The notes below the pieces were generated by a model. The model worked only from the letters and a program-made list of their open reading frames with translations, was not told the DNA's origin and did not search any database. From a virus (Duplodnaviria; Caudoviricetes), in the IMG/VR virus record IMGVR_UViG_3300028832_000116, positions 1 through 64,000 of that record: DNA of 64,000 nucleotides, one strand, 5' to 3'. Shown here piece after piece: positions 26,201 through 43,553 of the stretch (the first letter of the stretch is position 1; the number at the start of each line of letters is the position of its first letter). Position numbers and translations under genes: made by a program.

Positions 26201-29200
26201 ATGAAACGCCAGGTAAAACCCAACCAGAAGGAACAAAAGGTACTGCAAACCGATATTCCAACTGAGGAATCAGAAGTCGTTGGCGAGAAAAAGCAACGTA
26301 AGAAAGAGTTATATCATTATGGAACGCCTAGACATTCTGGAAGATATCCTTGGGGTTCTGGTGAGAATCCTTATCAAGGCGACATGGATTTTAAGGCGCA
26401 TGTCGCGAGTCTGAAACAAAGAGGATGGAGTCAAAAGGAAATTGCCAAGAGCATGAAGATGAATACTTCTCAACTTCGTGCGAAGATTGATATTGCCAGT
26501 GAGAATATTTCTAGGGGCCGCGATTCTATGATTTTTAAACTTCGCGACAAAGGTTATTCGAAGATGGCAATTTCAAGGCAACTTCAAATTCCAGAGAGTA
26601 CTGTTCGAAATGTTTTAAAAAATGTTGATAAGATCAAGACAAATTCTACTAGGAATGTTGCCGAGGATTTAAAGAAAGCTGTTGGCGAACAGAAATATGT
26701 GGATGTTGGGCATGGATGCGAAGTTCAAATGGGTAATATTTCTAAAGATAAACTTCGCCATGCAGTTGCTTTAATGCTTGAAGAAGGATATGAAATTCAG
26801 TATCATGAGCAACCTCAGATGGGTACTGGCAAATCTACAATGATGAAGATATTAGTACCAAGGGGAACGCCTTGGGCTGAGGTTGAGAAGGCTAGAAAAA
26901 ATGCTGAGATTGATTATCCTGGTTTTCATTATGAGCATGGCGACTATGATAATCCTCATAAACTTGAAACCCCTGTTGCGGTTAATGAGAAACGTGTTAA
27001 GATTATTTATCCTAAAGATGGCGGTGATAAGAAGGATGGTCTTATTGAGATCAGACCTGGCTGCGAGGATTTAAATCTTGGGCGCAATTCATATGCTCAG
27101 GTTCGTATAGCCGTAGGCGAAGGTAATGGAACTCATTTTGCTAAAGGGGTTGCTGTTTATGGTGATCCAAAAGATTTTCCTAAAGGTGTAGATATTCTGG
27201 TTAACACGAGTAAGCCAAACGATTATCCAATGATGGGTTCAAAAGATAAAACGGTATTAAAACCGATGAAAAAAGATCCCATTACTAATAATCCATTTGG
27301 TGCTAGTATTAATCAGGATGATGAAGGAGAATCAAAGCATCCCCTTCGTTATTTCCAAGCACATTACACAGGTAAGGATGGTCAGACGCATTTATCCGCA
27401 TTGAATATTGTTAATGAGCAAGGCACTTGGGATGATTGGAATAGAAATTTGTCAAGTCAATTTTTGGCGAAGCAAACAGTTCCTCTTGCTAAGCGTCAGT
27501 TATCTTTAGATGCTCGTATGCGTAATGATGAATTCGAAGAGCTTAAGACAATAAATAATCCAGTAGTTCGTAAGAATTTATTAGAAAGCTTTGCGGATAA
27601 TTGTGATTCCGCTGCTGTACATTTAAAGGCGGCTGCTTTACCTAGGCAGGCAATGCAGTTGCTTATTCCATTTACTAATATTAAAGAGGATGAGATTTAT
27701 GCACCAAATTTTCATGATGGAGAAAAGGTTTGCCTAATTCGATTTCCTCATACAGGACGTTTTGAAATTCCTGAATTGACTGTTAACAATCGTTTTCCTG
27801 ATGGTCAACGGGTTATTGGTGGTAATGATCCAACTGTAAAGCGTGATGCTGTTGGTATAAATCCTAAGGTTGCGCAGCAGTTATCTGGCGCGGATTTTGA
27901 TGGCGATACTGTTTTGGTTATTCCAAACGATAAAGGTTATGTGAGAACTCATGGGCCTTTAGAGCAGCTTGATGGATTTGCTGAAGAGATGCATGAACGT
28001 TATAAACGTCCTGCTGATTCTCCATATCAACAGATGACTCCGCATGAGAAGGGCATGCAGATGGGTTTGGTATCAAATCTTATTACTGACATGACTTTAA
28101 AAGGTGCTACAAAACCTGAGTTGGCTAGAGCAGTTAAACATTCCATGGTTATTATTGATGCCGAGAAGCATGATTTGGATTGGCGACAATCGGCTGAAGA
28201 TAATAATATTCGGCAATTATATATTAAGTATCAAGGGCGATCTCAAGGAGGAGCATCGACACTTATTTCTAAAGCCTCAAGTGAGAAAGATATTCCATAT
28301 CGTAAACCCGGCGAGACCCGAGTCGATCCAGAAACAGGAAAGACCCGGGTTTTTTATACGGATCCAAAAACCGGAGCTAAATTATGGACTACCCCTAAGC
28401 CTGGGGAAAAAGGATATAAAGAAGTTGCTAAACGTGTTTTAAAAGAAGTTAAGGACCCCATTACTGGGAAGACTCTTATTGACGAAAAGACTAAACAAAA
28501 AATAAAGGAACCTGTGCTTGACGAGAACGGAAAGATTATTTATAAAAAGGTTCCAAAAATGATAAAGAGTCAGTGGATGTATGAAGAATCTGACGCTATG
28601 AATTTATCTTCTGGTACCCAAATGGAAAATATTTATGGAGAATATGCGAACGAGATGAAATCTTTAGCAAATAAAGCTCGTCTTGAAGCTTCTCATATTC
28701 GTCCACAAAAGCAAGATATTACAGCCAAGCAAGTTTATTTTAAGGAAATTAAAGAACTTGATGCTGCTTTAGCTTTGGCTAAAGAAAATGCTCCTCGTGA
28801 ACGTAAGGCGCAAATGCTTGCTAATAAGTTATTCCAAATGAAGAAAGAAGATAATCCCGAGCTTTCTTATGATAAAGATAAAATTAAGAAAGTTAAAGGG
28901 CAGTGTCTTGAAGAAGCACGATATCGTGTTGGAGCCAAAAAGACTCTTATTGATCCTACTGATCGTCAATGGGAAGCTATTCAGGCTGGCGCTATTTCTT
29001 CTAACAAGCTTGAAGAGATCATTAAGAATTGTGATACAGATAAGCTTAAGAAACGTGCAACTCCTCGTTCTCCTAAAGGTATTCCGCCTGCTAAGATTGC
29101 TACAGCCAAGCTTAGGTTGAATCGTGGTTATTCACCTGACGAAGTTGCTATGAGTCTTGGTGTTTCTATCTCTACTCTTTATCGTGCACTTGACCTTGAT

Positions 29201-29224
29201 GGTGACGGAAAGAAAGATAGCTAA
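26201..29224 (+). CDS. single-subunit two-barrel RNA-polymerase-like protein with terminal HTH domains
   Basis: LIRFPH and LSGADFDGD (DFDGD at 27893-27907); HTH-like segments at both ends; N-terminal LYHYG tag. Confidence 0.75.
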   Translation: MKRQVKPNQKEQKVLQTDIPTEESEVVGEKKQRKKELYHYGTPRHSGRYPWGSGENPYQGDMDFKAHVASLKQRGWSQKEIAKSMKMNTSQLRAKIDIASENISRGRDSMIFKLRDKGYSKMAISRQLQIPESTVRNVLKNVDKIKTNSTRNVAEDLKKAVGEQKYVDVGHGCEVQMGNISKDKLRHAVALMLEEGYEIQYHEQPQMGTGKSTMMKILVPRGTPWAEVEKARKNAEIDYPGFHYEHGDYDNPHKLETPVAVNEKRVKIIYPKDGGDKKDGLIEIRPGCEDLNLGRNSYAQVRIAVGEGNGTHFAKGVAVYGDPKDFPKGVDILVNTSKPNDYPMMGSKDKTVLKPMKKDPITNNPFGASINQDDEGESKHPLRYFQAHYTGKDGQTHLSALNIVNEQGTWDDWNRNLSSQFLAKQTVPLAKRQLSLDARMRNDEFEELKTINNPVVRKNLLESFADNCDSAAVHLKAAALPRQAMQLLIPFTNIKEDEIYAPNFHDGEKVCLIRFPHTGRFEIPELTVNNRFPDGQRVIGGNDPTVKRDAVGINPKVAQQLSGADFDGDTVLVIPNDKGYVRTHGPLEQLDGFAEEMHERYKRPADSPYQQMTPHEKGMQMGLVSNLITDMTLKGATKPELARAVKHSMVIIDAEKHDLDWRQSAEDNNIRQLYIKYQGRSQGGASTLISKASSEKDIPYRKPGETRVDPETGKTRVFYTDPKTGAKLWTTPKPGEKGYKEVAKRVLKEVKDPITGKTLIDEKTKQKIKEPVLDENGKIIYKKVPKMIKSQWMYEESDAMNLSSGTQMENIYGEYANEMKSLANKARLEASHIRPQKQDITAKQVYFKEIKELDAALALAKENAPRERKAQMLANKLFQMKKEDNPELSYDKDKIKKVKGQCLEEARYRVGAKKTLIDPTDRQWEAIQAGAISSNKLEEIIKNCDTDKLKKRATPRSPKGIPPAKIATAKLRLNRGYSPDEVAMSLGVSISTLYRALDLDGDGKKDS

Positions 29225-29234
29225 TCAGTTAGTT

Positions 29235-29274
29235 GCAAAGTCTTATGAATTAGTTTCATAGGGCTTTTGCTTTT
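29235..29274 (+). terminator. putative terminator
   Basis: GCAAAGTCTTATGAA / TTCATAGGGCTTTTGC then TTTT. Confidence 0.6.
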
Positions 29275-29324
29275 GGTACATCAAAGGTTGATGCAAATGC
29301 ATGACAAGGAGGTGATGATCTCAC

Positions 29325-29687
29325 ATGGTGAAAGAGACAGATATTCTATTAACAACTAAAGACAATCCTTACAATCCTTTCACAGAGTATGATGAATGGA
29401 AATACTTTGATGAGAAGATGAAACACTACAACACAGAAGCTTACATTGCTCGTGAAGTTGGTATGCTTGATCCTGATATTAGTGATGAAGCATTAGCTCA
29501 TGAACGAGTTGAAGCTTTCAAAGAGATCATCAGAATAAATGATGAACTGGGGCTGGACATTTATACAATGATATCCCGGGAGGGGGAAAAGTTAGACCCC
29601 ACCCCGTCTGTTTATCTCGGTCAAGATGAAGTGGAAGAGATATCAGACACTCCGGGGGAGGGTCCCGCAGAATCCCCCACCCCCTGA
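29325..29687 (+). CDS. conserved phage hypothetical protein before cos
   Basis: AAGGAGGTG RBS; LTTKDNPYNPF. Confidence 0.75.
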   Translation: MVKETDILLTTKDNPYNPFTEYDEWKYFDEKMKHYNTEAYIAREVGMLDPDISDEALAHERVEAFKEIIRINDELGLDIYTMISREGEKLDPTPSVYLGQDEVEEISDTPGEGPAESPTP

Positions 29688-29728
29688 CATCGCCGCCCTC
29701 TTTAAAAAATCTCCGGGGGGACATTTTG
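29651..29728. other. putative cos site (core CGCCGCCCT 29691-29699)
   Basis: GC island with G/C runs between the last replication-side gene and the packaging genes; HNH gene nearby. Confidence 0.65.
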
Positions 29729-29748
29729 TCAGAACTTTTTAAACCCTT

Positions 29749-29945
29749 TAGGACTTTAGAGGCACTTTCCATAGGTATCCTGGGACACATCACTCCTTTC
29801 GTCTCTGTCGTAGATTAGTGGTTGGGATCTACGATTTAGCGTCACCCAGTTTCTGGCGGCTGGTTCTTCATGTGCTGAAATTCCTCCAAAGATTGATACA
29901 CATAAAAGTCCCAGGATACTTATTGAAAGTGCCTCTAAAGTCTTA
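29749..29945 (+). repeat. 38-bp inverted repeat enclosing a 121-nt structured loop (candidate ncRNA)
   Basis: arms 29749-29786 and 29908-29945, 35/38 complementary, two differences are G-U compatible. Confidence 0.8.
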
Positions 29946-29995
29946 TTAAACTAATTTAATTCAATGGTTATCTCAGCCAAAGGAGGGATAGTCTT

Positions 29996-30328
29996 ATGAA
30001 AACTAAGACTAAAGTTGCTGAAGAGCCACTGCATCGTCAAACTCCCGCAATAACTCCAGAGGGTCGAGAGGACCAAATGATCGCTTATGCAGTGGATCTT
30101 GCTGAACAACAGCTCAGAAATGGAACTGCATCGAGTCAAGTGATTACACATTACTTGAAATTAGGTTCCATGCGCGAGCGGAAAGAAAAAGAGAAGCTTG
30201 AAGAAGAGATTAAACTTTTAAAAGCTAAGACCGAAGCTCTTAAAGCAGATAAAGAAAGAGATATCCTTTACGCTCAAGCTATCGAAGCTATGCGTAGGTA
30301 TACCCCGCATTCTTCAGACGAGTATTAA
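29996..30328 (+). CDS. putative terminase small subunit
   Basis: first gene after cos; helical, 110 aa; assignment by position. Confidence 0.45.
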   Translation: MKTKTKVAEEPLHRQTPAITPEGREDQMIAYAVDLAEQQLRNGTASSQVITHYLKLGSMRERKEKEKLEEEIKLLKAKTEALKADKERDILYAQAIEAMRRYTPHSSDEY

Positions 30329-30354
30329 ATCAAAATAAGTAGGAAGAAACTCAT

Positions 30355-30642
30355 ATGGCACATGTTATGAATTATCAAGAAATTCTCACTGCTGCTGAGA
30401 AAAGGAAAACCATTTATGAGGAGCTTCGACTTAAGGAAAGAATAAGACCGCTTAGATTTGATGGTGTTGATTTTGTCGGAGTTAAAGATAATTGCTTTCT
30501 TATGCTGATGGAATGCGACGAAGAAGTATGTATGGATTACAATTTGTATTATCGTTGTTGGAATAAAATGCCAAGTGATGAAGAGAGATCTAATGCGTTT
30601 TGGAAAGAGGATCCATACATGATTCCTCAGGAAAAAGAATGA
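30355..30642 (+). CDS. hypothetical protein
   Basis: ORF after AATCAAAAT motif. Confidence 0.65.
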   Translation: MAHVMNYQEILTAAEKRKTIYEELRLKERIRPLRFDGVDFVGVKDNCFLMLMECDEEVCMDYNLYYRCWNKMPSDEERSNAFWKEDPYMIPQEKE

Positions 30643-31058
30643 TGTTAAGATGCTATACAGATTTAATTCAATTATCAACATTCAAAGAGCGATATGAGTA
30701 TTTACGCCTTGGAGGAATAGTTGGTCAAGATACTTTTGGATTTGATCGTTATTTAAATCAGAAGTTTTATCATTCATACGAATGGAAACAGATTCGGAAT
30801 AAAGTGATTATGCGAGATGAAGGTCGTGATCTTGGAGTAGAAGGTTATGAACTTCATGGTAACATATTTATTCATCATATGAATCCGATTAAACCAGAAG
30901 ATCTTTCAAATGTTCCGGATGAAATACTAAATCCAGAATTTTTAATTTGTGTAAGTAAGCGAACGCATGATGCAATACATTTTGGAGACGCAAGTTTATT
31001 ACCAAAGTTGCCTACTGAGAGAACGCCGAATGACACGTGTCCATGGAAGTTAAACTGA
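30639..31058 (+). CDS. HNH endonuclease (packaging-associated)
   Basis: WKQIRNKVIMRD...IHHMNPI...LICVSKRTHDAIH. Confidence 0.85.
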   Translation: MMLRCYTDLIQLSTFKERYEYLRLGGIVGQDTFGFDRYLNQKFYHSYEWKQIRNKVIMRDEGRDLGVEGYELHGNIFIHHMNPIKPEDLSNVPDEILNPEFLICVSKRTHDAIHFGDASLLPKLPTERTPNDTCPWKLN

Positions 31059-31174
31059 TTTAAAAATCATTTAAACCACTTTCATAAGATGCAAGTGTTG
31101 TTCTGCGTTCTCTAGCATTGAGAACAAGGCTTTGCGTCTTTGCCTAAAATTTGAAAGAAAGGAGGGATTTGTTC

Positions 31175-31609
31175 ATGGCCCTCGTTAATAACAATAGCAT
31201 TCTAATGAGTGTTAAACAAATGCTGAATATTGAACCTGAAGAGATGGGGTTCGATGTTCAGATTGGGACATATATTAATGCTCAATTTATGACTTTGCAT
31301 CAACTTGGTATTGGTCCAGATGAAGGATTCTCAGTATGGGATGCTGATACAGTATGGACAGATTTCTCCACAGATAAAACGCTGCTCGAGGTTGTGAAGC
31401 AGTATGTATGCTTAAAAGTTCGAATGATGTTTGATCCACCGGCATCGTCAATTGTTTCAGATGCTATTAATAATCAAATTCACGAACTTGAATGGCGTTT
31501 AAACATTCAGGCTGAAAAAGCTTGGGAAGAGTATCCACAAGATAAAAATGAAGAGGAAACGAATTCGTCAGAAGATGATCTAGTTTCCGAGGAAGCTGGT
31601 GAACCATGA
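31175..31609 (+). CDS. head-to-tail adaptor (gp6-like), probable
   Basis: SILMSVKQML...VKQYVCLKVRMMFDPP...ELEWRL. Confidence 0.6.
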   Translation: MALVNNNSILMSVKQMLNIEPEEMGFDVQIGTYINAQFMTLHQLGIGPDEGFSVWDADTVWTDFSTDKTLLEVVKQYVCLKVRMMFDPPASSIVSDAINNQIHELEWRLNIQAEKAWEEYPQDKNEEETNSSEDDLVSEEAGEP

Positions 31610-33438
31610 AGTATTATGCCGTAACGGATGACCCGAGAGAGCTGTACCACTATGGCGTAAAAGGCATGAAGTGGGGCCAGCATATCTTTGGTGATAAACC
31701 TAAAAGCCCTGGATATCATAGAGCATCTAGAAAACTAAAGTCTTTAATGAGTAAAACTTCCAGCAGTTTAAAGAGTGTTGGAAAAGCGGCTCAGAAGTCT
31801 GTTGCTCAAATTTCGTATGATCTTAGAAAAAAGCAAGATGCGAGGTATCAGCAAAGAGTTCAAAAGAGTCAAGACAAATTTGATAAAAAAATGGTAAAGC
31901 TTGACTCTAAAATCGATAATTATTTTGCCAATAAACCGGTAAAAGATGCCAAACGAGCAGCCGCTATAAATAGTGCAAAGAATAATATCGCTGCAATTGG
32001 AAGTACAATTAAAAAAGCACCTGGCCAAATTGCTTATAATATTCGTAAACAGCAGGATTCGAGGTATGAAAAAGCTGTTCAGAAAGCGCAAGCTAGAAAT
32101 AATTTATCAAAGGCTTTATCATCCTTAGATAAAGAGGATAAATATAGAAAGCAGATTGACCGTGAACGCAAGATGGAATCTTTGCGTGAACGTCAAGCGG
32201 ATGTTCAGGCAGATAATGATCTTAAAGCATTATCTAAAGCGGTTCGAGCTGAAAAGCATATGCCGAAGTATATGCAGGAAGCTCGTACAGGAATGCTTAA
32301 ATATGGAAAGTTATCTGAAGATCAGATTGGTCGTGTTCAGGAACGTCTTGCTCTTGAAGCCCAAACTAGAAGACTGGGTAGCACAGAAGCTCCTTCATGG
32401 CGGCAGCAGAAGAAAGCAGCGCGTCGTGAAGGTTATCTTCAGGGTATTACTAAAGGTATTTCTGCTGGTATGGAAGAAGTTGGCCGTGCCAGTGTTCAGT
32501 ATGGTATCAAGAATCTTGCAAATCGTAAGAAGATGGATAATGCGTCTGAGCTTAAAGCAGAACGTGAAAAGACAGCTAATCGCATTAAGAATAAGAAGAC
32601 TCGTTCTGAAATGCGTGGAGATTTTAAACAGGATGTCTATAACGAACAGCTTAAAGCTGGTGTTAAAGCATCCGAACGTGGTGTTCCATGGCAGACTTCG
32701 AGAAAAGCGGCGCAGCGTCTTCAGGAAGCTAAGAGGATTCAAAATGAAAATCAGGGTAAACTTGAAGATGCGAATGCTGAACGCAAATTCCTTATGGATG
32801 AAAAACATGACACTATTCGTACAGAACGTAAGAATAAACTTGAAGATGCTCGTGCCGAACAAAAGTTTCTTACTGATGAAACGCATAATAAAATTCGCAA
32901 TGAACGTGAACGCCAAGAACGTCTTTCTGAAGATGAGGAAAAAGTTAAGCGTATTGGTGAGCAGATGTATAAATACGGTTTTGCTGTTCTTCCACAATAT
33001 AATAAAGATGGTAAATTTACAGGATATATGAAATATAATGCGGATGGTTCTATTGGTAAGGATAAAGCTGCTGCAGGTTTGGGTGAAATTTATAAGCAAG
33101 ATCATGATCGAGCCGAAGCTGAAAGGCAGCGTATAGAAGCTGAGGCAGCTAGAGAAAGAGCACGTGCCGAAGCTGAAGCTAAAGCAGAAAAACAGAGACA
33201 AGAGCATGATGAACAGGTTAAAAAAGATGAATTAAGAAGACAAAGAGAAGCACGTGAAGCTAGAAAAGAAACGGTTGAAGCTATAAGAATAATGGATAAA
33301 GCTCCTGATCGTTATAGAGCAATGGATAGAGCTTCTAATCGTTCTCATCCTAGCATGCTTAACCAATTTTTAAATCAGTTGGCAGTAGAACGTGAATATG
33401 TTAAACCTAAAAAACCAAAGAGGCGGCATAAAGGTTAA
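31606..33438 (+). CDS. HYG-tag basic coiled-coil protein
   Basis: ELYHYGVKGMKWG; Lys/Arg-rich; two pairs of internal repeats. Confidence 0.8.
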   Translation: MKYYAVTDDPRELYHYGVKGMKWGQHIFGDKPKSPGYHRASRKLKSLMSKTSSSLKSVGKAAQKSVAQISYDLRKKQDARYQQRVQKSQDKFDKKMVKLDSKIDNYFANKPVKDAKRAAAINSAKNNIAAIGSTIKKAPGQIAYNIRKQQDSRYEKAVQKAQARNNLSKALSSLDKEDKYRKQIDRERKMESLRERQADVQADNDLKALSKAVRAEKHMPKYMQEARTGMLKYGKLSEDQIGRVQERLALEAQTRRLGSTEAPSWRQQKKAARREGYLQGITKGISAGMEEVGRASVQYGIKNLANRKKMDNASELKAEREKTANRIKNKKTRSEMRGDFKQDVYNEQLKAGVKASERGVPWQTSRKAAQRLQEAKRIQNENQGKLEDANAERKFLMDEKHDTIRTERKNKLEDARAEQKFLTDETHNKIRNERERQERLSEDEEKVKRIGEQMYKYGFAVLPQYNKDGKFTGYMKYNADGSIGKDKAAAGLGEIYKQDHDRAEAERQRIEAEAARERARAEAEAKAEKQRQEHDEQVKKDELRRQREAREARKETVEAIRIMDKAPDRYRAMDRASNRSHPSMLNQFLNQLAVEREYVKPKKPKRRHKG

Positions 33439-35186
33439 TGCTGTATCTTAGCAATACAGCCACGCCAAAGTATTTTGCACAGTTTCGTGATCTGGTTGTA
33501 CGCGGTGAAATTCCGGTATGTAAAGAAATTTCAATGGAAATGTACCGGATTCAAGAACTTATAGATAATCCTGGGGTTTATTATGATCCTCAGCCAGTTG
33601 AGTGTTTTATAGATTTTTGTGAAGCAGAGATGTGTTTAACAGATGGTTCCGATTTAACACTTCTCGATTCATTCAAACTTTGGGCTGAGGAAGTATTTGG
33701 ATGGTATTATTTTGTTGAAAAAAGTGTTCCCGTCGTGAGTCCTGACGGTCATAGCGTTCATTATGAAACTCGCACGGTTAAGAAGCGCTTAATTACAAAA
33801 CAGTTTCTAATTGTTGGTCGAGGCGCGGCTAAATCGATTTATGCCAGTTGCATTCAGTCGTTCTTTCTGAATATCTATCCAGAAACAACTGATCAGATTG
33901 TTACCGCACCAACGATTAGACAATCAGATGAAACTTTGGGCCCGATTCGTACAGCAATTGTTCGAGCTCGTGGCCCTTTGTTTAAATTCCTTACTGAGGG
34001 AAGTTTACAAAACACGACAGGATCAAAAGCAAACCGCGTGAAATTAGCTTCCACGAAATTGGGAATACAAAATTTTATTAATGGCTCTATTATCGAACCT
34101 CGTCCAATGACAATCGATAAACTTCAGGGCCTTCGTCCTAAGGTGGCTACGATTGACGAATGGCTGTCGGGAGATATTCGCGAAGACGTCATAGGAGCTA
34201 TTGAACAGGGTGCTTCCAAACTTGATGATTACTTTATTTTAGCAACTTCGTCAGAAGGTACTGTTCGAAATGCTAGTGGTGATGATATCAAAATGGAATT
34301 ACTCAGTATTCTTAAGGGCGAGTATTATAATCCTCATGTTAGCATCTTCTATTATAAGTTAGATGATGTTAAAGAAGTTGGAAATCCGAATATGTGGCTT
34401 AAAGCTAACCCGAATCTCGGCAAAACGGTTAGCTATGAGGCTTATCAGCTTGATGTAGAAAGAGCAGAGAAAGCCCCGTCCGCTAGGAATGATATACTGG
34501 CAAAACGATTTGGAATTCCGCTCGAGGGTTATACGTATTTCTTTACTTATAACGAAACCCTCCCCCACAATCATCGTGACTTTTGGCAAATGCCTTGTTC
34601 TATGGGCATTGATCTTTCACGTGGCGATGACTTTTGTGCTTTCACATTCTTATTCCCGATTGGTGATGGTAGTTTTGGTGTTAAGACGCGTTGCTATATT
34701 TCAGCAGCAACTTATGCCAATTTGCCACAGTCGACCAGAAATAAGTATGATGAATTCATATCCGAGCATAGTCTTCAGGTATTAGATGGAACAATACTTG
34801 ATATGATGGATGTCTATGACGATCTCGATAGATTTATCGAGGAATCTAAATATGATGTTCGTTGTGTTGGTTATGACGTTTATAATGCTAAAGATTTTAT
34901 TGCTCGGTGGGCAAACGAAAATGGTCCATTTGGCATAGTTAAAGTTATACAGGGTGCAAAGACTGAGAGCGTTCCTTTAGGAGAGATAAAGAAACTTGCT
35001 GAAGAACGTGCTCTTATATTTGATCAGCAAATGATTACCTACACAATGGGTAATTGTATAACTTTAGTTGATACAAATGGTAACCGAAAACTTTACAAGA
35101 AACGTAACGATCAAAAGATCGACTCTGTAGCAGCTATGATGGACGCATTAGTTGCTTACAAGATTAATCGAGAGGCGTTCGATTGA
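33438..35186 (+). CDS. terL: terminase large subunit
   Basis: VGRGAAKS, ATIDEW, GIDLSRGDD, KIDSVAA. Confidence 0.92.
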   Translation: MLYLSNTATPKYFAQFRDLVVRGEIPVCKEISMEMYRIQELIDNPGVYYDPQPVECFIDFCEAEMCLTDGSDLTLLDSFKLWAEEVFGWYYFVEKSVPVVSPDGHSVHYETRTVKKRLITKQFLIVGRGAAKSIYASCIQSFFLNIYPETTDQIVTAPTIRQSDETLGPIRTAIVRARGPLFKFLTEGSLQNTTGSKANRVKLASTKLGIQNFINGSIIEPRPMTIDKLQGLRPKVATIDEWLSGDIREDVIGAIEQGASKLDDYFILATSSEGTVRNASGDDIKMELLSILKGEYYNPHVSIFYYKLDDVKEVGNPNMWLKANPNLGKTVSYEAYQLDVERAEKAPSARNDILAKRFGIPLEGYTYFFTYNETLPHNHRDFWQMPCSMGIDLSRGDDFCAFTFLFPIGDGSFGVKTRCYISAATYANLPQSTRNKYDEFISEHSLQVLDGTILDMMDVYDDLDRFIEESKYDVRCVGYDVYNAKDFIARWANENGPFGIVKVIQGAKTESVPLGEIKKLAEERALIFDQQMITYTMGNCITLVDTNGNRKLYKKRNDQKIDSVAAMMDALVAYKINREAFD

Positions 35187-35187
35187 T

Positions 35188-35910
35188 ATGAGTGAGTATT
35201 ATGGAGTAACAACGCCTACCGATGATTACCTGGCGCATTATGGCGTAAAAGGTATGAAATGGGGTGTACGAAGAGCTCTTGCTACAGGGAATGCTAAAGC
35301 ATTAGCAAGACAGTATTCAAAGGCAAGAAGAAAGCTCGATAAGTTAAATAAGAAATCTGATATTAAACAGCAAAAGAAAGAAATGTCAAAAGCAATAAAA
35401 CGTGCTGCAATAGGTGCAGGAGTTGTTGGTGCTGGATTAGGTATTAATATTGGTTCTAAAAAGTTGTTTAAGAAGGATGCTATTAAAAAACCAATTACCA
35501 TTCACGAAAATGTTATAAACGAGAAAATTATTCCTGAAAAAATAATTAGAGAGACAATTATTCCAGAAAAAGTAATTAAAGAAAAATATACAATGTGGGA
35601 TAATGTTCCAACACAAACATTTAACAAATCTACAGTAAGTGGTGTTAGCTCTAAGTTTAAAAGTGGAACAAAAAAAGCAAATGTCCGTAATGGAATTGGG
35701 AATGCTGCTAAAATTGCTAGTGTTGCTGCTCTTGGTTATACAGGATATAATATTGGAAAAGGTATTGCATCAGTATATAGACAGACATCAAAAGGCCATG
35801 TTAAAGCTGTAGTAAAACGTGATGATTGGCGCAATCATATGCTTGATACTTTTAAAGGAACCGAATATTCTAATTTTCCTAATATACAAAAGAAGAAAAA
35901 GAAGAGGTGA
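35188..35910 (+). CDS. HYG-tag protein (paralogue A)
   Basis: YLAHYGVKGMKWGVRR; two Gly/Ala helices; FKGTEY and basic tail. Confidence 0.8.
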   Translation: MSEYYGVTTPTDDYLAHYGVKGMKWGVRRALATGNAKALARQYSKARRKLDKLNKKSDIKQQKKEMSKAIKRAAIGAGVVGAGLGINIGSKKLFKKDAIKKPITIHENVINEKIIPEKIIRETIIPEKVIKEKYTMWDNVPTQTFNKSTVSGVSSKFKSGTKKANVRNGIGNAAKIASVAALGYTGYNIGKGIASVYRQTSKGHVKAVVKRDDWRNHMLDTFKGTEYSNFPNIQKKKKKR

Positions 35911-35915
35911 TTATT

Positions 35916-36638
35916 ATGTCTGAATATTATGGCATAAATAATCTCTCTGATTTTTTTGTGCATTATGGTATAAAAGGTATGAAGTGGGGTATTCGTAAGA
36001 AACAATCTTCTGGTCAAATTCTGTTTGTATCTGGAAGTTCTAGAACGCAAGATAAAAATTCGCCATATTATAGACGCAAATTACCAAAAAACGTTCGAAA
36101 AGTTTTGAAATCTTCAATAAAATCTGGAGATAAAATAGTTGTTGGCGATGCCCCTGGAATAGATCGTCAAACTCAGGATTATTTAAAGAAAAAGCATTAT
36201 AAAAATGTAGAAGTTTATAGTCCTGGAACTAGCGTTCGTTATTTAGCAAATCCTAAATGGAAGGCAAATATGATTAATGATAAAGATCATGAGCCGATGA
36301 GCCCCGAATGGCTTGCAAAGAAAGATATAGTCATGACGAATAAGTCTACAAAAGGGCTTGCTGTTATTTTAGACGAAGGGTCTAAAGCTACTCGAAATAA
36401 TGTACAGCGAATGATTAAGCAGAAAAAAAGTATGAAAATTTTTGAGCTTCATAATACTAATAAAGATCGCATAAAACCTTTAGTTAAGGGATTTGCTCAC
36501 CCTGATGATCAAGAGATTATTTATTGGGGAATTAATGATCCAAAGAAAAAGATTGGAAAAGGTTGGGATGTGAATGGTCATAATTATGCTGTTCAGTATC
36601 GAGGCCTTGTCGATCGAAGAACTAGAAATAAGTTGTAA
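35916..36638 (+). CDS. HYG-tag protein with SLOG (YspA/DprA-like) domain
   Basis: FVHYGIKGMKWG then LFVSGS, IVVGDAPGID, KDIVM...LAVILDEGSKAT. Confidence 0.65.
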   Translation: MSEYYGINNLSDFFVHYGIKGMKWGIRKKQSSGQILFVSGSSRTQDKNSPYYRRKLPKNVRKVLKSSIKSGDKIVVGDAPGIDRQTQDYLKKKHYKNVEVYSPGTSVRYLANPKWKANMINDKDHEPMSPEWLAKKDIVMTNKSTKGLAVILDEGSKATRNNVQRMIKQKKSMKIFELHNTNKDRIKPLVKGFAHPDDQEIIYWGINDPKKKIGKGWDVNGHNYAVQYRGLVDRRTRNKL

Positions 36639-36662
36639 ATAGTTTTAAGAAAGGAAATCAAA

Positions 36663-37166
36663 ATGGAAGATATGAAATTATCAGCTCCATGGATTACTTT
36701 TGTTCATGAGCTTGAAGCGCTTTTTTCAGAAGATCTCGAAGTGAAAGTAAAGTATGACGAAACAAATAATACTGTAAAGCTTTACGTTGCAGATTCTGAT
36801 AAGGCCATGGCTCTTGAAAAATTAATTCCTGCTAAAAAAGATTTTGGAAATGTTTCTATAGCTATTAGCGTTATTCCTCCGAATGTTGAGGAAATGACAA
36901 AAGAGGATTTATTTAATAAAGCTTTCCGTGGTAATCCTGCGGTATCTTTTACGGCTTCTTATGACAATCCTCTCGGCCATTTAACTTATATTGTTTTCGA
37001 AAAGAAGGTTGTTCAGTTTTTTAATGATCAGTTAGACGATATTAATGGTAATAAATCTATGCTTTTTCAGGAAATTGCATATGATGTGTTCGGATCTGAT
37101 CATGCAGTATTTTATTGTACAGATGCTGATAGAAATTTATCTAAACCCCTTGGTGAATGGCCGTAA
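36663..37166 (+). CDS. hypothetical protein
   Basis: AAAGGA RBS, 167 aa. Confidence 0.75.
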   Translation: MEDMKLSAPWITFVHELEALFSEDLEVKVKYDETNNTVKLYVADSDKAMALEKLIPAKKDFGNVSIAISVIPPNVEEMTKEDLFNKAFRGNPAVSFTASYDNPLGHLTYIVFEKKVVQFFNDQLDDINGNKSMLFQEIAYDVFGSDHAVFYCTDADRNLSKPLGEWP

Positions 37167-37189
37167 TAAATTAGGATACAGGTGATCAA

Positions 37190-37882
37190 ATGAATTATTA
37201 TGCAGTTGAACGCTCCACGGATCACCTGGAGCATTATGGCGTAAAAGGTATGCGGTGGGGCGTACGAAGGGCTCTTGCTACAGGAAACGCTAGAGCATTA
37301 GCAAGGCATTATCGTAAGGCAGCGAAAAAATTAGCTAAGCTTCAGAATATTGGTAATCATGCTGGTCGTTCGAAAGCAAAAGCTATTGCATATGGAACTG
37401 CTGCTGCTGGAACCGGCGCATTAGCTATTGGCGGAACTGGATTAGCTTCTAAAGTTTTTAAATATGGCGCCGCAGGAGCTAAAACATTAAGAACAAAAAG
37501 ATTAAAAGAAGATTTGCTTTCTAAAGGTTTAAAAGGCATAGAAACTGGTGCTGGAAAAGCTGCAGGAGCAATTGAAAATCTTGGTAAAGGTGAAACTAGA
37601 TTTTTGTTAAATAGGCCAGTTATTGGTAAAAATGGCACTTTGGAAAAGAAAGCCATTTTGGACAAAAAAATTTCCAATAATACTTTGTTCCGTCTTGGTG
37701 CTTTGGGTGCAACTGCTGGTTTTGCTGCTAAATCTGCTCAGCATGCTTATCGTGCTAGAAATGCAGATGCATATAGAGAAAAAGCAGAGCGATTTAAAGA
37801 AGCTATGGATGATGTTTTTGCTGGAACTGATTATGAAGGTCATTATGAAAAAGCGCGTCGTAGAAGACGTAATTATGGTTGA
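37190..37882 (+). CDS. HYG-tag protein (paralogue B)
   Basis: HLEHYGVKGMRWGVRR; FAGTDY and Arg tail. Confidence 0.8.
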   Translation: MNYYAVERSTDHLEHYGVKGMRWGVRRALATGNARALARHYRKAAKKLAKLQNIGNHAGRSKAKAIAYGTAAAGTGALAIGGTGLASKVFKYGAAGAKTLRTKRLKEDLLSKGLKGIETGAGKAAGAIENLGKGETRFLLNRPVIGKNGTLEKKAILDKKISNNTLFRLGALGATAGFAAKSAQHAYRARNADAYREKAERFKEAMDDVFAGTDYEGHYEKARRRRRNYG

Positions 37883-37896
37883 TGGAGGAGAATACA

Positions 37897-38721
37897 ATGA
37901 ATAACGAATATTATGGAGCTCCTACAACTCCGACTTCTGATTATCTTGCTCATTATGGCATTAAAGGTATGAAGTGGGGAGTTCGGAAAGCGGTTGCTAG
38001 TGGAAGTTCTAGGAGACTTGCTCGTCAGTATGCTAAGGCTTCTAAGAAATTAGCTAAATTAGAAAAACGGGCAGCTTCTGGTAAGAAATATGCGAAGCGT
38101 GCTGCTTTAATGGGTGCTGGCGCTGCTGGTATGGGAGCGGTTGCTGCTACTGGTACTGCTGGGATTTCTAACGCTATCGGCGCTGCTGGTACCGCATTTT
38201 CTCAGGGTGCTAAGGGTGCTGGTGGTTTAATGCAGCGTGTTGGTGGCGCTATGCAGCGTAGAGGTATTCGTGGTGGTGGTCGTATGACTGCTGCAGGTAA
38301 GGCTGTTTCTGGTCTTGGCAAGCATAATGCTAGTGGTGTTGCCGGACGTGTTGCAAATTGGGGCAAGCAGTCCCATGATGTTGCTACTGCTTCTAGGAAT
38401 ATTAGTGGTGAAGTAGCAAGGAGAATGGGCAATGCCGGTATTAAAGGTCAAAGTACAGTAAGAACTATAGGTAATAGAACTGCTGATACACTTGAAAAGT
38501 ATGGCCATGGCCGTATTTCTAATAGTGGTCTTGTTCGTCTTGGTGCAGCGGCTGCCGGTGCTGGTTTAGCTGGTGGTGCTGCATATAATGCTTATCGTGC
38601 TGCTACGACAAAACGTGCTGGTAGGAAAGCTGCTGAATTCCGTAAAGAAATGAATAAAGCCTTCGCTGGTACGCAGTATGCGAACGGTGGAGCTCAGAAA
38701 CGTAAGCGTCGTCGTGGATAA
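37897..38721 (+). CDS. HYG-tag protein (paralogue C)
   Basis: YLAHYGIKGMKWGVRK; Ala/Gly-rich; FAGTQY and basic tail. Confidence 0.8.
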   Translation: MNNEYYGAPTTPTSDYLAHYGIKGMKWGVRKAVASGSSRRLARQYAKASKKLAKLEKRAASGKKYAKRAALMGAGAAGMGAVAATGTAGISNAIGAAGTAFSQGAKGAGGLMQRVGGAMQRRGIRGGGRMTAAGKAVSGLGKHNASGVAGRVANWGKQSHDVATASRNISGEVARRMGNAGIKGQSTVRTIGNRTADTLEKYGHGRISNSGLVRLGAAAAGAGLAGGAAYNAYRAATTKRAGRKAAEFRKEMNKAFAGTQYANGGAQKRKRRRG

Positions 38722-38762
38722 TGCTTAATTAAAATCAAAATGAAAACATATGAGGTGATGCT

Positions 38763-40190
38763 ATGGCCTCAATCATGCAAAGGCTCCAGCACGCCTGGAA
38801 TGCCTTTCGAAATAACAGAGATCCTACTGAAGATATAGGAGCGGTTTATAATAAACCTGGCCGTTCTGTAATAGGTGGATACGCAAGTTCTATGCGACCG
38901 GATCGTTCTCGTTTAACTCGGGGCAAAGAAAGATCTATTGTTACTGCAATTTATAATCGCATTGCGGTGGATGTTTCTCAGGTGAAGATTCAGCATGTCA
39001 AACTTGATGAATCACAGAGATTCAAAGAAGTTATGAAGTCTGGTCTTAATGAATGCCTTACGTTAAGCGCAAATATCGATCAAACCGGAAGGCAACTGAT
39101 TCAGGATGCTGTACTGAGCATGTTTGATGAAGGCTGTGTCGCTTTGGTTCCCGTCGATACGGATATCAATCCAAAATTAAGTGGCGGGTATGATGTATTG
39201 TCCATTCGTACAGGTAAAGTTACACAGTGGTATCCTGAAGCTGTTAGAATACTTTTGTATAACGAAGAAAAAGGAATAAAGGAGGAAGTTACTCTTCCGA
39301 AATCGATGGTTTCGATTATCGAGAATCCTTTTTATGCTGTAATGAATGAGCCAAGTTCCACTCTTCAAAGGCTTCTTAGAAAGCTTATTTTAAAGGATAT
39401 GTTGGACGAGAAGAGCGGAGCTAATAAACTCGATTTGATTTTCCAGCTTCCCTATTCTATTAAAACTGAAATGCGGATGGCAGAAGCCGAAAAGAGAAAG
39501 AAGAAGATTGAAGAACAATTAGTGGATTCACAGTATGGCATCGCTTATATTGATGCTACCGAAAAGATTACACAGTTGAATCGTCCGGTTGAAAATAATC
39601 TTCTTGAACAAATCAGGGATTTAACAGATCAGTTATATGCACAGCTTGGTTTAACAGCGGAGATCATGAACGGTACTGCTGATGAAAAAGCCATGCTTAA
39701 TTATAACAATCGAATTATTGAGCCTATTCTTTCGGCACTTTGCAATGAAATGAAGAGGAAATTCCTGACAAAGACAGGTAGAACGCAAGGACAGTCTATT
39801 ATGTACTTCCAGGATCACTTTAAGCTTGCAACAATCGATAAGATTGCTGATCTTGGTGATAAGATGATCCGTAATGAAATTATGACCGCTAATGAAATGC
39901 GTTCTAAGCTTGGTTTACCGCCTGCTGATGATCCTGCTGCAGACAAACTTCGGAATCCTAATATGCCGCAATCAGAAGATAGTGGAGAACAGCCAGAAGA
40001 ACCTGTAGATCCTGAAGAGCTCGAGGAAGCGAAAAAAGTCCTCCTTGATGCGGGTCTTACAGAAAAGGATCTAAGTGAGCTTACCGATGCCGAGGTCGTT
40101 GAGCTTGCTGAAAGGTATAAGACTGGCAATCTTGAGGATGAAGAGGAAGAAGCTCCACCTGGAGAACCAGAAGAACAGAAGACTGGATAA
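38763..40190 (+). CDS. portal protein
   Basis: AIYNRIAVDVS...MTANEMRSKLGLPP; position; acidic C-terminal extension. Confidence 0.88.
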   Translation: MASIMQRLQHAWNAFRNNRDPTEDIGAVYNKPGRSVIGGYASSMRPDRSRLTRGKERSIVTAIYNRIAVDVSQVKIQHVKLDESQRFKEVMKSGLNECLTLSANIDQTGRQLIQDAVLSMFDEGCVALVPVDTDINPKLSGGYDVLSIRTGKVTQWYPEAVRILLYNEEKGIKEEVTLPKSMVSIIENPFYAVMNEPSSTLQRLLRKLILKDMLDEKSGANKLDLIFQLPYSIKTEMRMAEAEKRKKKIEEQLVDSQYGIAYIDATEKITQLNRPVENNLLEQIRDLTDQLYAQLGLTAEIMNGTADEKAMLNYNNRIIEPILSALCNEMKRKFLTKTGRTQGQSIMYFQDHFKLATIDKIADLGDKMIRNEIMTANEMRSKLGLPPADDPAADKLRNPNMPQSEDSGEQPEEPVDPEELEEAKKVLLDAGLTEKDLSELTDAEVVELAERYKTGNLEDEEEEAPPGEPEEQKTG

Positions 40191-40220
40191 ATCAAAATAG
40201 AAATTGGAGGACACATAACG

Positions 40221-42194
40221 ATGTCAATGGATAGACCTTATGACATTTCCGGTTGGGCAACGATGTGTAACATCAAATGCACTGATGGCCGGGTGATTCG
40301 TCCTAATGCCTTCATTGACAATGACGGTGAAGAAGTCCCCATGGTTTATCAGCATTGCCATACTGACCCTGAAAATGTTCTTGGTCATGCTCTGCTGGAG
40401 AATCGTGATGAGGGCGTCTATTGCTATTGTTGGTTCAATAAAAATCCGAAGGCGCAGGCAACGAAGAATGCAATCGAAAATGGTGATCTTAAACAGTTTT
40501 CGATTTATGCAAATCAGCTTGTGCAGCATGGAAACGATGTTGTTCACGGTTCCATTAAAGAAGTCAGTATTGTCATGAGCGGTGCCAATAAAGGTGCTCG
40601 GATTGAGAATCTGAATTTTGCGCATAGCGATGGTTCTTATAACACCGATGATGAAGAGGCATTTATTTATACAAAACCACAGAAAATCTTATGCCATTCA
40701 GAGTTGGAGGAAGATGACACGGAGGATGACGACATGAAAAATGATACGCTCGATGTCCAGGCAGTATTGGACGGTATGGATGAAGAGCAGCTGGCTGTTG
40801 TTCAGGCTCTTTATGAACAGGGACAGATTGATGCCCTTAATGAAGTAGTCGGCGAAGATGATGAAGAAGAAATCGAGGACGAAGACTACGAAGATGAAGA
40901 AGATGTAGTTGACGAAGACGATTACGAAGATGAAGACGTCGATGATGAAGAAGGCATCTATGACGAAGAAGACTTCGAAGACGAAGAGGATGAAGAAGAA
41001 TATGAAGATCCTGAAGACTTCGAAGACGAAGATGAAGAATACGATGAAGATTATGAAAGCGAAGGCAATTTAGCAGTCGCTCATTCTGATTTTGGAGGTT
41101 ATGATCCCATGAAATACAATGTTTTTGATGGTAGTGCTGTTGAGGTTAATGATGCGCAGAACACGTTAAGCCATTCCGAGATTCAGGAGATTTTTGCGGA
41201 TGCTGCTAAAGATCGTCTTGGCAGTCTGAAAGCTTCTGTGCTGGCTCATGCTCAGGATTATGGTATTGAACAGATCGATTGGCTGTTCCCGGATGCTCGT
41301 GAACTGAACAATCCCCCGTCTTTTATTCAGCGGGACATGGGGTGGGTAAGTAAAGTTATGCAGGGTACCCGCCACACTCCCTTTAGCCGTATTAAGACTA
41401 CGTTTGCTGATATTACTGCTGATGAAGCTCGGGCGAAGGGTTACGTCAAAGGTAATCGGAAACTGGAAGAAGTCTTCACTTTGCTGAAGAGAACGACTGA
41501 TCCGCAGACCATTTACAAAAAGCAGAAGCTGGATCGTGACGATGTCGTTGATATTACTGACTTCGACGTTGTTGCCTGGCTGAAGAGCGAAATGCGGATG
41601 ATGCTGGATGAGGAAATTGCTCGTGCTATCCTGATTGGTGATGGTCGGGCTACTTCCAGTGATGATAAGATTTCCGAGTCTCATGTTCGTAGCATCTTCC
41701 GGGATGATGATCTGTATGTTGTTCGTAAGGAACTGAAGGAAGTTGCTGGCGAAGCCAAAGCGAAGACCTTCATTAAGACCGTTCGGAAAGCTTGGAAGGA
41801 TTATAAGGGTTCTGGCAATGCGGTTGCTTTCGTGACTGAAGATTGGCTGAGCGAGCTGCTTCTGCTGGAAGATGGCATTGGACATTTCCTGTATCCCACC
41901 AAGGAGACGGCTGCTAATGTTCTGGGCGTTCGTGAGATTATTACTGTGCCGGTTATGGCTGATGCTTCTACGACTCGCCATGATACTACTGCCAATAAGG
42001 ATTACAAGCCTGCTGCGATTATTGTTAATCTGAGCGACTATAATGTTGGCGCTGATAAGGGTGGCTCTGTCAATATGTTCGAAGACTTCGATATCGATTA
42101 CAACCAGCAGAAATACCTGATTGAAACCCGTTGCAGCGGTGCTCTGGTGAAGCCCTACAGCGCGATCGTTATCGAGGAAGAAGTAAACCCTTAA
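40221..42194 (+). CDS. prohead protease - acidic scaffold - major capsid polyprotein
   Basis: N-terminal HK97-type protease (GWAT, YQH, FSI, EVSIV...GAN); D/E-rich linker; capsid-like C-half. Confidence 0.88.
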   Translation: MSMDRPYDISGWATMCNIKCTDGRVIRPNAFIDNDGEEVPMVYQHCHTDPENVLGHALLENRDEGVYCYCWFNKNPKAQATKNAIENGDLKQFSIYANQLVQHGNDVVHGSIKEVSIVMSGANKGARIENLNFAHSDGSYNTDDEEAFIYTKPQKILCHSELEEDDTEDDDMKNDTLDVQAVLDGMDEEQLAVVQALYEQGQIDALNEVVGEDDEEEIEDEDYEDEEDVVDEDDYEDEDVDDEEGIYDEEDFEDEEDEEEYEDPEDFEDEDEEYDEDYESEGNLAVAHSDFGGYDPMKYNVFDGSAVEVNDAQNTLSHSEIQEIFADAAKDRLGSLKASVLAHAQDYGIEQIDWLFPDARELNNPPSFIQRDMGWVSKVMQGTRHTPFSRIKTTFADITADEARAKGYVKGNRKLEEVFTLLKRTTDPQTIYKKQKLDRDDVVDITDFDVVAWLKSEMRMMLDEEIARAILIGDGRATSSDDKISESHVRSIFRDDDLYVVRKELKEVAGEAKAKTFIKTVRKAWKDYKGSGNAVAFVTEDWLSELLLLEDGIGHFLYPTKETAANVLGVREIITVPVMADASTTRHDTTANKDYKPAAIIVNLSDYNVGADKGGSVNMFEDFDIDYNQQKYLIETRCSGALVKPYSAIVIEEEVNP

Positions 42195-42230
42195 CACCCC
42201 CTGAGGAGGGGGATGAGGAACCGGTACCTC
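42185..42230 (+). other. programmed -1 frameshift signal
   Basis: A AAC CCT heptamer, 5-nt spacer, CCCCCT/AGGGGG stem. Confidence 0.75.
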
Positions 42231-43172: not shown

Positions 43173-43553
43173 TTGATGGCCAGATTTTATGGAGAGATTG
43201 GTTTTCTTCGAACGGAAGAAGAAGATCATGATAATCGTCCAGGTATTTGGGTGGAAAAGATAACTAAACGTAAATATTATGGCGATGTTCTTTCTAACAG
43301 CCGTCGTTGGGAACAATCAGGAACTTTAAATGATAATCTGGTCATCAATAACCGAATCAGTATCGTTGCTGATAGTTTTGTCAAAGCAAATATTGGCGCG
43401 ATGAAATTTGTAAGATGGCAAGGAATAAATTGGAAAATCACAAATGTTGAAGTCCAATATCCTCGACTTATCTTAACGATCGGGGGTGAGTATCATGAGC
43501 CAGAGCAGGCGAATACAGTTGCACTTGAAGCTGGAACAATTACTTGGCAGTAG
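43173..43553 (+). CDS. head-to-tail stopper, probable
   Basis: RFYGEIGF...YYGDV...WKITNVEVQYPRLIL; position. Confidence 0.6.
   Translation: MMARFYGEIGFLRTEEEDHDNRPGIWVEKITKRKYYGDVLSNSRRWEQSGTLNDNLVINNRISIVADSFVKANIGAMKFVRWQGINWKITNVEVQYPRLILTIGGEYHEPEQANTVALEAGTITWQ

Follow-up and report, generated by a model that had tools for sequence, protein, structure and literature searches.

In phage T4, the prohead protease gp21 acts at sites of the form (L/I)-x-Glu, the same P3-x-P1 architecture as that of the hydrophobic-x-His sites considered here. The capsid-targeting sequence carried by the T4 internal proteins IPI-III and by Alt is removed by this enzyme (Mullaney and Black 1996, as cited in PMC12991175). 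We describe below a locus of an uncultured tailed phage in which a comparable arrangement appears to have been built from different parts. The phage (genome roughly 101 kb) is represented by IMG/VR record IMGVR_UViG_3300028832_000116, which comprises 100,880 bp and is rated complete by CheckV; its first 64 kb, the ‘window’ analyzed here, carry the head module. Six proteins of the window open with a short, histidine-centered tag, corresponding in five of them to Pfam family DUF7211, and similar hydrophobic-x-His sites lie within a polyprotein that joins a protease, a scaffold-like linker and the major capsid domain. The best overall explanation, and one that we consider moderately probable, is that these elements constitute a T4-like capsid-targeting and processing system.

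By analogy, the tag system appears to work like that of T4, yet it is not a member of the T4 system. The two are alike in that a short N-terminal peptide is common to unrelated proteins, that it has a site with a hydrophobic P3, a variable position and a fixed P1 in common with the capsid and scaffold precursors, and that enzymes are among the cargo, which in T4, and probably here, travels with the DNA. They differ in that P1 is histidine rather than glutamate; that the protease belongs to the S78, HK97-type family rather than the T4 family, and forms one chain with the capsid protein; that the conserved block runs about 12 residues past the histidine; and that the cargo often consists of multi-tag polyproteins. 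The tag has no sequence relation to the T4 signal, no homology to gp21 was found, and the hosts are Gram-positive, their phages belonging to a siphovirus-type lineage that includes Lactococcus phage 1706 and many actinophages.

Several other systems invite comparison. The cargo-loading peptides of encapsulins are also short, portable, glycine-containing peptides that bring unrelated cargo to the interior of an HK97-fold shell, but they are mostly C-terminal and are not tied to a protease site. The MuF-fused polymorphic toxins of temperate phages, reportedly described by Jamet and colleagues in 2017, likewise place variable effector domains on a head-associated module that is delivered with DNA; here, in contrast, the adaptor is a 20-residue tag rather than a folded domain, and a Pfam search covering the window proteins and a set of 60 multi-tag proteins gave no Phage_Mu_F match. 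N4-like and crAss-like phages carry a phage RNA polymerase in the particle (of the two-barrel type in the latter), whereas the polymerase in question here is a compact, 1007-residue, YonO-like enzyme with helix-turn-helix (HTH) domains, whose location in the virion is suggested by a label in the 1706 record and by its variant tag only. Finally, many head proteins of giant phages, virion RNA polymerase subunits included, are trimmed at one consensus site by a prohead protease (phiKZ gp175 and SPN3US gp245; PMC7411985, PMC10052503), but there the consensus is (S/A/G)-x-Glu, the enzymes are free-standing proteases of the T4 type, and a conserved block like that of DUF7211 is absent.

Histidine sites of the protease-capsid polyprotein

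The polyprotein gene begins at position 40221, on the plus strand, and encodes 657 residues with a Peptidase_S78 match at the N-terminus and a Phage_capsid match at the C-terminus. The prohead serine protease domain (residues 1-130; 40221..40610) scores 26.7 bits against a Pfam cut-off of 21 bits, and its residues H45, H56, S94 and S116 do not vary among 23 diverse homologues. It is followed by an acidic, scaffold-like linker (residues 131-343; 40611..41249), delimited by sequence, homologues and an AlphaFold2 model, and then by an HK97-fold major capsid domain (41250..42194), assigned by Pfam and by structural alignment, whose mature form is predicted to start at Ala344. The linker harbors five hydrophobic-x-His sites, NFAH135|SD, ILCH159|SE, AVAH288|SD, TLSH318|SE and VLAH343|AQ, with histidine codons at nucleotides 40623, 40695, 41082, 41172 and 41247. 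All five linker histidines (out of 14 in the polyprotein) have L, F or V at P3 and S or A at P1'; in the capsid domain, by contrast, a hydrophobic P3 accompanies one of four histidines and a small P1' accompanies none.

These sites are conserved in homologous polyproteins, as the sequence-only reading had anticipated. In 120 close homologues, histidines 135, 159, 318 and 343 are invariant, and site 288 holds histidine in 59 and glutamine in 61. The 23 diverse homologues, at 41-82% identity, likewise all keep His135 and His159; site 318 is histidine in 20 of them, and the last linker site is always present, directly before a conserved GIxxIDxLFPDA, in the form LAH|A-x-x-YGI or L-x-H|GI. The linkers are otherwise hypervariable around the conserved histidines, and those of homologues contain one to three copies of scaffold-like helical repeats that are separated by L-x-H|A sites. 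Glutamine stands in place of histidine not only at site 288 but also at site 318 in two of the 23 diverse homologues (of Streptomyces type) and in the portal of phage OhMyWard; these exchanges suggest that glutamine may sometimes serve at P1.

The same pattern was quantified in 59 distinct linkers, drawn from the tag-seeded loci described below and containing 426 histidines, by comparison with composition-preserving shuffles. A P3 residue of L, I, V, M or F accompanies 378 of the 426 (91±8.5 after shuffling) and a small P1' residue 341 (140±9); both are found together at 310 (31±5.5), a roughly ten-fold enrichment whose z-score overstates independence because the linker sequences are related. 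The resulting logo reads L>I>V>M at P3, a variable P2, histidine at P1, S/A/G at P1' and D/E at P2'. The pattern of histidine sites in the linkers is not due to chance.

An AlphaFold2 model of the polyprotein, built with its homologue alignment (mean pLDDT 66.9), places a confident protease domain at residues 5-120 (pLDDT about 80-90), a disordered segment at 121-177 that includes His135 and His159, a helical hairpin at 179-209, a disordered acidic segment at 210-313 that includes His288, two helices at 318-347 that include His318 and His343, and the HK97 fold from about residue 370 onward. No solved structure matches the polyprotein by sequence. Alignment of the capsid model with VIA-align gave Z scores of 12-16 to HK97-fold capsids (9gyi_B, Z 16.4; HK97 itself, 1ohg_A, Z 15.1 over 255 residues). 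The mature HK97 capsid protein begins at Ser104, and residues 106..383 of 1ohg_A align with residues 341..655 of the model; the corresponding starts in T5 (5tjt_A, residue 164), DT57C (162), cf-PICI (93) and phiXacJX1 (111) align with model residues 342, 341, 341 and 343. Because the first ordered residues of such processed capsids align to positions 341-345, VLAH343|A344 sits at the position of the HK97 and T5 maturation cut, in agreement with the suggestion made from the sequence that the mature capsid would begin after a histidine site.

The predicted mature N-terminus, AQD-YGIEQIDW (41250-41290), also resembles the core of the tag, YGVKGMKW, in the form Y-G-(V/I)-x-x-(M/I)-x-W; this likeness is left unexplained and may be chance, since the tryptophan is not kept in other lineages. 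At the other end of the gene, a 338-residue open reading frame (ORF) in another frame (42131-43147) begins ahead of the capsid stop codon, and some close homologues (P0079 and others, 775-790 residues) have an in-frame C-terminal extension; actinophage homologues have an extension of about 60 residues.

The agent of cleavage need not be the phage’s own protease: a host enzyme could cut at these sites, as Prp does for the capsid and scaffold proteins of Staphylococcus phage 80alpha, with the phage protease domain serving some other role. That precedent comes from Firmicutes, but the same site motif is found here in phages of both Actinobacteria and Firmicutes, it is unlike the Prp site, and the phage always carries its own S78 domain with the histidine and serine invariant, all of which makes a host protease very improbable.

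The tag and its carriers in the window

The tag occupies about 20 residues near the N-terminus of its carriers and consists of a conserved block that flanks the histidine on both sides, V-[DE]-x-F-L-x-H-Y-G-V-K-G-M-K-W-G-V-R-K. The sequence-only reading had noticed an HYG motif in six proteins, and every string that it quoted was found in place when the sequence was re-read. Five of the six (31606, ELYHYGV; 35188, YLAHYGV; 35916, FFVHYGI; 37190, HLEHYGV; and 37897, YLAHYGI) match DUF7211 (PF23847; gathering score 27 bits) at 35-53 bits, with E values of 1e-8 to 2e-14, and these are the only DUF7211 matches in the entire record. The aligned five share an invariant H-Y-G-x-K-G-M-x-W-G and, within this phage, a common start, M-x-(E)-Y-Y-(G/A)-(V/I).

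The sixth carrier is the YonO-like, two-barrel RNA polymerase with HTH domains (26201..29224, plus strand; phrog_4291, E=0), which contains LIRFPH and LSGADFDGD, the ADFDGD fitting a DxDGD metal loop. Its variant tag follows a variable leader of 35 residues and reads ELYH39-YGTPRHSGRYPWGSG (about nucleotides 26306-26362). The protein has no Pfam match at E<=0.01 and falls short of the DUF7211 cut-off, and its orthologues give weak, partial DUF7211 matches (14-15 bits, profile positions 5-13 only). About 250 phage orthologues align with it from residue 36 or 37 on, and in five of six orthologous N-termini the block L-x-H-Y-G-(T/I/V)-x-(R/K)-x-S-G-R-Y-P-W-G-S-G comes after a leader of variable sequence (BitterVaud1 having a degenerate form only). 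Such conservation indicates that the block is a maintained variant of the tag rather than a local accident; judged from the sequence, it is a diverged relative that lies outside DUF7211 by the curated cut-off.

All genes of the head region (26.2-42.2 kb) lie on the plus strand, in the order 31606 (tagged), large terminase subunit (TerL), 35188 and 35916 (tagged), 36663 (untagged), 37190 and 37897 (tagged), portal and polyprotein. The first tagged protein (31606..33438; 610 residues; DUF7211 at nucleotides 31636-31683, with the histidine at residue 15) has a long, very basic body, rich in K, R, E and Q and probably a coiled coil, and its position upstream of TerL matches that of 1706 orf7 and ReqiPoco6 gp015. 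Three others are basic paralogues with glycine-zipper segments: 35188 (35188..35910; 240 residues; DUF7211 at 35212-35277), in which these segments are hydrophobic and the C-terminus is lysine-rich; 37190 (37190..37882; 230 residues; DUF7211 at 37214-37273); and the Gly/Ala-rich 37897 (37897..38721; 274 residues; DUF7211 at 37930-37992).

The remaining carrier, 35916 (35916..36638; 240 residues; DUF7211 at 35940-36008), has a globular body. AlphaFold2 and Foldseek place a SLOG domain at residues 35-178, modeled with a pLDDT of 86-97 (against 37-54 for the tag region); the Foldseek matches are YpsA (2nx2), DprA (4ljr) and ShosA (8zva), with E values of 1e-4 to 4e-4 and a Foldseek probability of 1.00, but at TM scores of just 0.43-0.55. 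As modeled, this body is a SLOG-superfamily (YpsA/DprA-like) Rossmann domain. The N-terminal tag is kept in all 26 homologues that were aligned, one of which has a kinase-like domain inserted between tag and SLOG domain. The low pLDDT of the tag, together with its retention in these homologues, argues that it is a flexible, portable N-terminal appendage, and the earlier idea of a portable tag is upheld by its presence on unrelated folds, outside the globular domain. No solved structure carries the tag, the lone match (E 1.1) being chance.

Directly after the SLOG protein, and thus inside the tagged array, lies an untagged acidic ORF (36663..37166, plus strand; 167 residues) with the N-terminus ITFVH|EL. 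It has no match in Pfam or PHROG, and a search of the ESM Atlas returned nothing usable; a speculative role would be that of partner or inhibitor for one of the cargo proteins next to it. The surrounding genes, also on the plus strand, are an untagged head-tail connector protein (31151..31609; Phage_connect_2, E 3e-31), TerL (33438..35186; TerL_nuclease, E 3e-33, and TerL_ATPase) and the portal (38763..40190; Phage_portal, phrog_12). A DUF7253 protein (43173-43553) comes after the capsid gene, as it does in another locus (L095), and represents a conserved unknown of the head module.

The portal itself begins MASIMQRLQH10|AWNAF, and was put forward in the sequence-only reading as a further carrier of a histidine site. 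The string is present, and six of the seven portals that were read (OhMyWard, with its glutamine, being the seventh) start with L-x-H-(A/G/S)-(W/Y); as evidence for a protease site this is weak, since the downstream residues (AWNAF) are conserved as well.

Tags and sites across the lineage

By its gene content and sequence, the phage falls in the lineage of Lactococcus phage 1706, Faecalibacterium phage FP_oengus and actinophages of clusters AM, AU, AW, DJ, CC, EL and BI. It shares with them the connector, TerL, portal, protease-capsid fusion and HTH RNA-polymerase-like genes, in identical order, with identities of 45-56% (over aligned parts) for the polyprotein and 35-46% for the polymerase. 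Homologues of the polyprotein, annotated ‘major capsid and protease fusion protein’, are found in phages of Arthrobacter, Gordonia, Streptomyces, Rhodococcus, Microbacterium and Curtobacterium, and further ones in the Lactococcus 1706 group, Faecalibacterium phages and human fecal contigs; homologues of the polymerase come from essentially the same ~250 records. The common ancestry of these phages of actinobacterial and Firmicutes hosts has been described, with an HTH/RdRP-like protein as the signature gene (Koert et al., bioRxiv 10.1101/842583), and the capsid-protease fusion has been noted (Klyczek et al., PMC5513430); neither paper mentions the tag or the histidine site. The 1706 protein has also been placed among the YonO-like polymerases, with no mention of its virion label (Ruprich-Robert and Thuriaux, PMC2919709). 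Literature searches on capsid-protease fusions, on the genera of this lineage and on YonO and 1706 returned descriptions of the fusion and of the polymerase homology, but not of the tag, site or virion location, and none of the papers searched contained ‘DUF7211’ or the letters of the motif.

Tag, polyprotein and polymerase occur together throughout the 1706/actinophage lineage. Between TerL and the portal gene, ReqiPoco6 has a run of six genes whose products start with a leader of 6-12 residues and then (D/N)FLAH-YGVKGMKWG, alongside a portal beginning KLMH|AY and linker sites NIAH|GD, ELTH|SE, TIAH|AE, TLSH|SE and ALKH|GI. OhMyWard, Count and Bing have five DUF7211 tags each and linker sites of the same type, within a range of five to seven tags for these three phages and ReqiPoco6; most of the tagged genes lie between TerL and portal, some tags being upstream of TerL or internal (one OhMyWard protein is tagged at residues 10 and 251). 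Phage 1706 has two tags, both in orf7 (ILQH-RGVIGMRWG and an internal ILLH-KGVKGMKWG), with the portal start RLLH|SW and six linker sites of the same type. In OhMyWard gp16 (L003 1329-3050), an internal tag comes after a 2H phosphoesterase domain that has the pair of H-x-T-L motifs, and such a domain is placed likewise in ReqiPoco6 gp015 (L001 2112-3728); if packaged, a 2H phosphoesterase (a cyclic-nucleotide or RNA-end phosphodiesterase) would be a candidate counter-defense enzyme. Actinophages also have, between portal and polyprotein, a protein of ~200 residues (L001 11342-11992, L003 8330-8944, L004 8330-8971, L005 7748-8266) that opens with hydrophobic-x-His and then YDP(V/I)K(A/R)REYYL(R/K)TR; on the strength of this motif it is a likely additional protease substrate, and it has no counterpart in the present genome.

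With a tag protein as tblastn query, every phage group that was matched also has the polyprotein. When IMG/VR was scanned for HYG(V/I)KGM, 522 stretches were confirmed, and the best 79 loci were kept; a protease-capsid fusion lies downstream on the same strand in 62 of them, with one to eight tags per locus, and almost all of the others are too short to reach it. One locus (L041) that seemed to have a tag without the polyprotein was ruled out, the fusion lying 20 kb away in the same record.

More broadly, a search of 1.84 billion representative proteins with a profile built from the five tags of the window found 22,822 at E<=1e-3 and 1,788 at E<=1e-10, and the top 150 are mostly proteins of 400-1,500 residues with three to five tags. 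In three such proteins (P0122, P0133 and P0136), nearly every internal tag has a linker-type site (VSH|SD, VEH|SN, IKH|SE, MSH|SD or FKH|SD, and in one case H|DD) 3-28 residues ahead of it; no upstream histidine site is evident for the last tag of P0136. In these multi-tag precursors, a cleavage-type site thus stands where a single-tag protein has its start methionine, and the succession of site, leader and tag is what one would expect of precursors that are divided into modules, each headed by leader and tag. P0136 (1,335 residues, five tags) amounts to a whole cargo array in one gene, situated between terminase and a portal that begins MGLGDRLSH|AWNAF; downstream of that portal come a 596-residue protease-capsid fusion with similar sites and then a DUF7253 gene, as in the window.

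Among 60 multi-tag proteins, Pfam finds a 2H phosphoesterase, the most frequent family, in 14, a GNAT acetyltransferase in five and CW_7 in one, and the bodies found behind the tag overall comprise SLOG, 2H phosphoesterase, GNAT, CW_7, basic coiled-coil and glycine-zipper proteins and RNA polymerase. The survey called for by the sequence-only reading has borne out part of its claim, through the tag’s occurrence on SLOG, 2H and GNAT domains and through the fusion at 62 of 79 tag-seeded loci. A sub-variant of the tag, with the continuation ...WG-x-RRFQN-x-DG-(S/T)-x-T, is seen in A4 and P0136; the tag family accordingly has at least three forms: a classic form, a form extended by RRFQN and the SGRYPWGSG type of the polymerase.

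The tag might instead bind the portal, terminase, DNA or host membrane, its Leu-x-His likeness to the linker sites being coincidental. The tag is indeed basic and aromatic (KGMKWGVRK), the tagged genes lie between terminase and portal, and one tagged protein matches the C-terminal part of PHROG families annotated ‘head morphogenesis / minor head protein’; but coincidence would have to account for a histidine and a hydrophobic P3 that are invariant in every tag seen, the diverged polymerase version included, for a linker-type His|Ser site before nearly every internal tag that was read, and for strict co-occurrence of the tag with one polyprotein family. Such a role appears distinctly unlikely.

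The association of tag carriers with virions can be judged from phage 1706, whose original record (EU081845) labels orf7, with its two tags, and orf75, the polymerase homologue, ‘structural protein’, the latter despite its location in the replication module; the 1706 genome has no further tag carriers. The labels reportedly derive from gel and mass spectrometric analysis of virions by Garneau and colleagues in 2008. ‘Structural protein’ labels in ReqiPepy6 and ReqiPoco6 were rejected as independent evidence, having been copied from 1706 by similarity. Going by the depositors’ labels for one relative, tag carriers may reside in virions, and for the polymerase the 1706 label and the variant tag suggest that it is a virion protein.

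These labels also bear on a different explanation, in which the protease does act at the histidine sites and the tag marks proteins for disposal, the tagged basic proteins being auxiliary scaffolds or charge-balancers for the acidic linker that are chopped and expelled at maturation. Three of the five tagged window proteins are small basic chains of low complexity, the acidity of the linker is extreme, and scaffold-like repeats are bounded by the same histidine sites. Disposal nevertheless seems unlikely, since both tag carriers of 1706 are labeled as proteins of the mature virion and tags are also found on enzymes (SLOG, 2H phosphoesterase and GNAT) and on the RNA polymerase.

A proposed route of loading, cleavage and delivery

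Under the T4-like explanation, the capsid protein would be made as a single chain of S78 protease, scaffold-like acidic linker and HK97-fold capsid domain. The protease domain would cut after histidine in (L/I/V/M/F)-x-His | (S/A/G)-(D/E), thereby chopping the linker and freeing the capsid domain at VLAH343|A. Because the tag opens with the hydrophobic-x-His site of the linker, it is probable that its carriers are taken into the head, where the protease trims them; the tag would be the loading signal, an extended recognition element that brings tagged proteins into the assembling procapsid for processing, most likely through the protease or scaffold part present on every capsid subunit. The tagged proteins would then remain in the head with the DNA and would probably enter the host with it.

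A number of observations weigh against this scheme. We infer cleavage after histidine, in any member of the lineage, from motifs and positions. At P1' the tag has Tyr, His, Phe, Arg or Lys and then Gly, whereas the linker sites have a small residue there; given this difference, and the conserved residues on both sides of the histidine, the tag may bind without being cleaved there. In the AlphaFold2 model, helices of intermediate confidence border on or enclose sites 318 and 343. The 79 loci are the best matches to the tags of this phage, and the scan may therefore have overlooked tags in phages whose heads are of other types. The statistical caution attached to the related linkers belongs here as well.

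The tag was originally proposed to be cut exactly between its histidine and the YG that follows. The hydrophobic-x-His element is indeed part of the tag, but the conserved block spans both sides of the histidine and a second H|S site lies upstream of internal tags, which leaves cleavage at H|YG just one of two options: cleavage may occur upstream of the leader, at the tag’s own histidine, or at both. As a tentative refinement, possible rather than probable, the tag would be a substrate-like ‘bait’ for the capsid-fused protease, such that each subunit provides its own cargo dock and the cut at histidine releases the cargo inside the closed shell.

If the T4-like explanation is correct, it would supply a function for a Pfam domain of unknown function that is found by profile in about 22,800 protein clusters, as well as an unusual, histidine-specific site for an HK97-type head protease. 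It would also make the set of injected proteins predictable from sequence alone for a large group of phages of gut, rumen, dairy and soil, and would provide a short tag usable for loading chosen proteins into the heads of Gram-positive phages. Cultured, harmless relatives exist in Lactococcus phage 1706 and in Arthrobacter and Gordonia phages. The finding suggests that phages of this lineage carry their own RNA polymerase in the particle. Were the bait refinement to hold, DUF7211 would serve as a packaging tag, general and programmable, across a very large group of phages with Gram-positive hosts, one that loads counter-defense enzymes (2H phosphoesterase, SLOG and GNAT) together with a virion RNA polymerase that would start early transcription, as in N4 and crAss-like phages.

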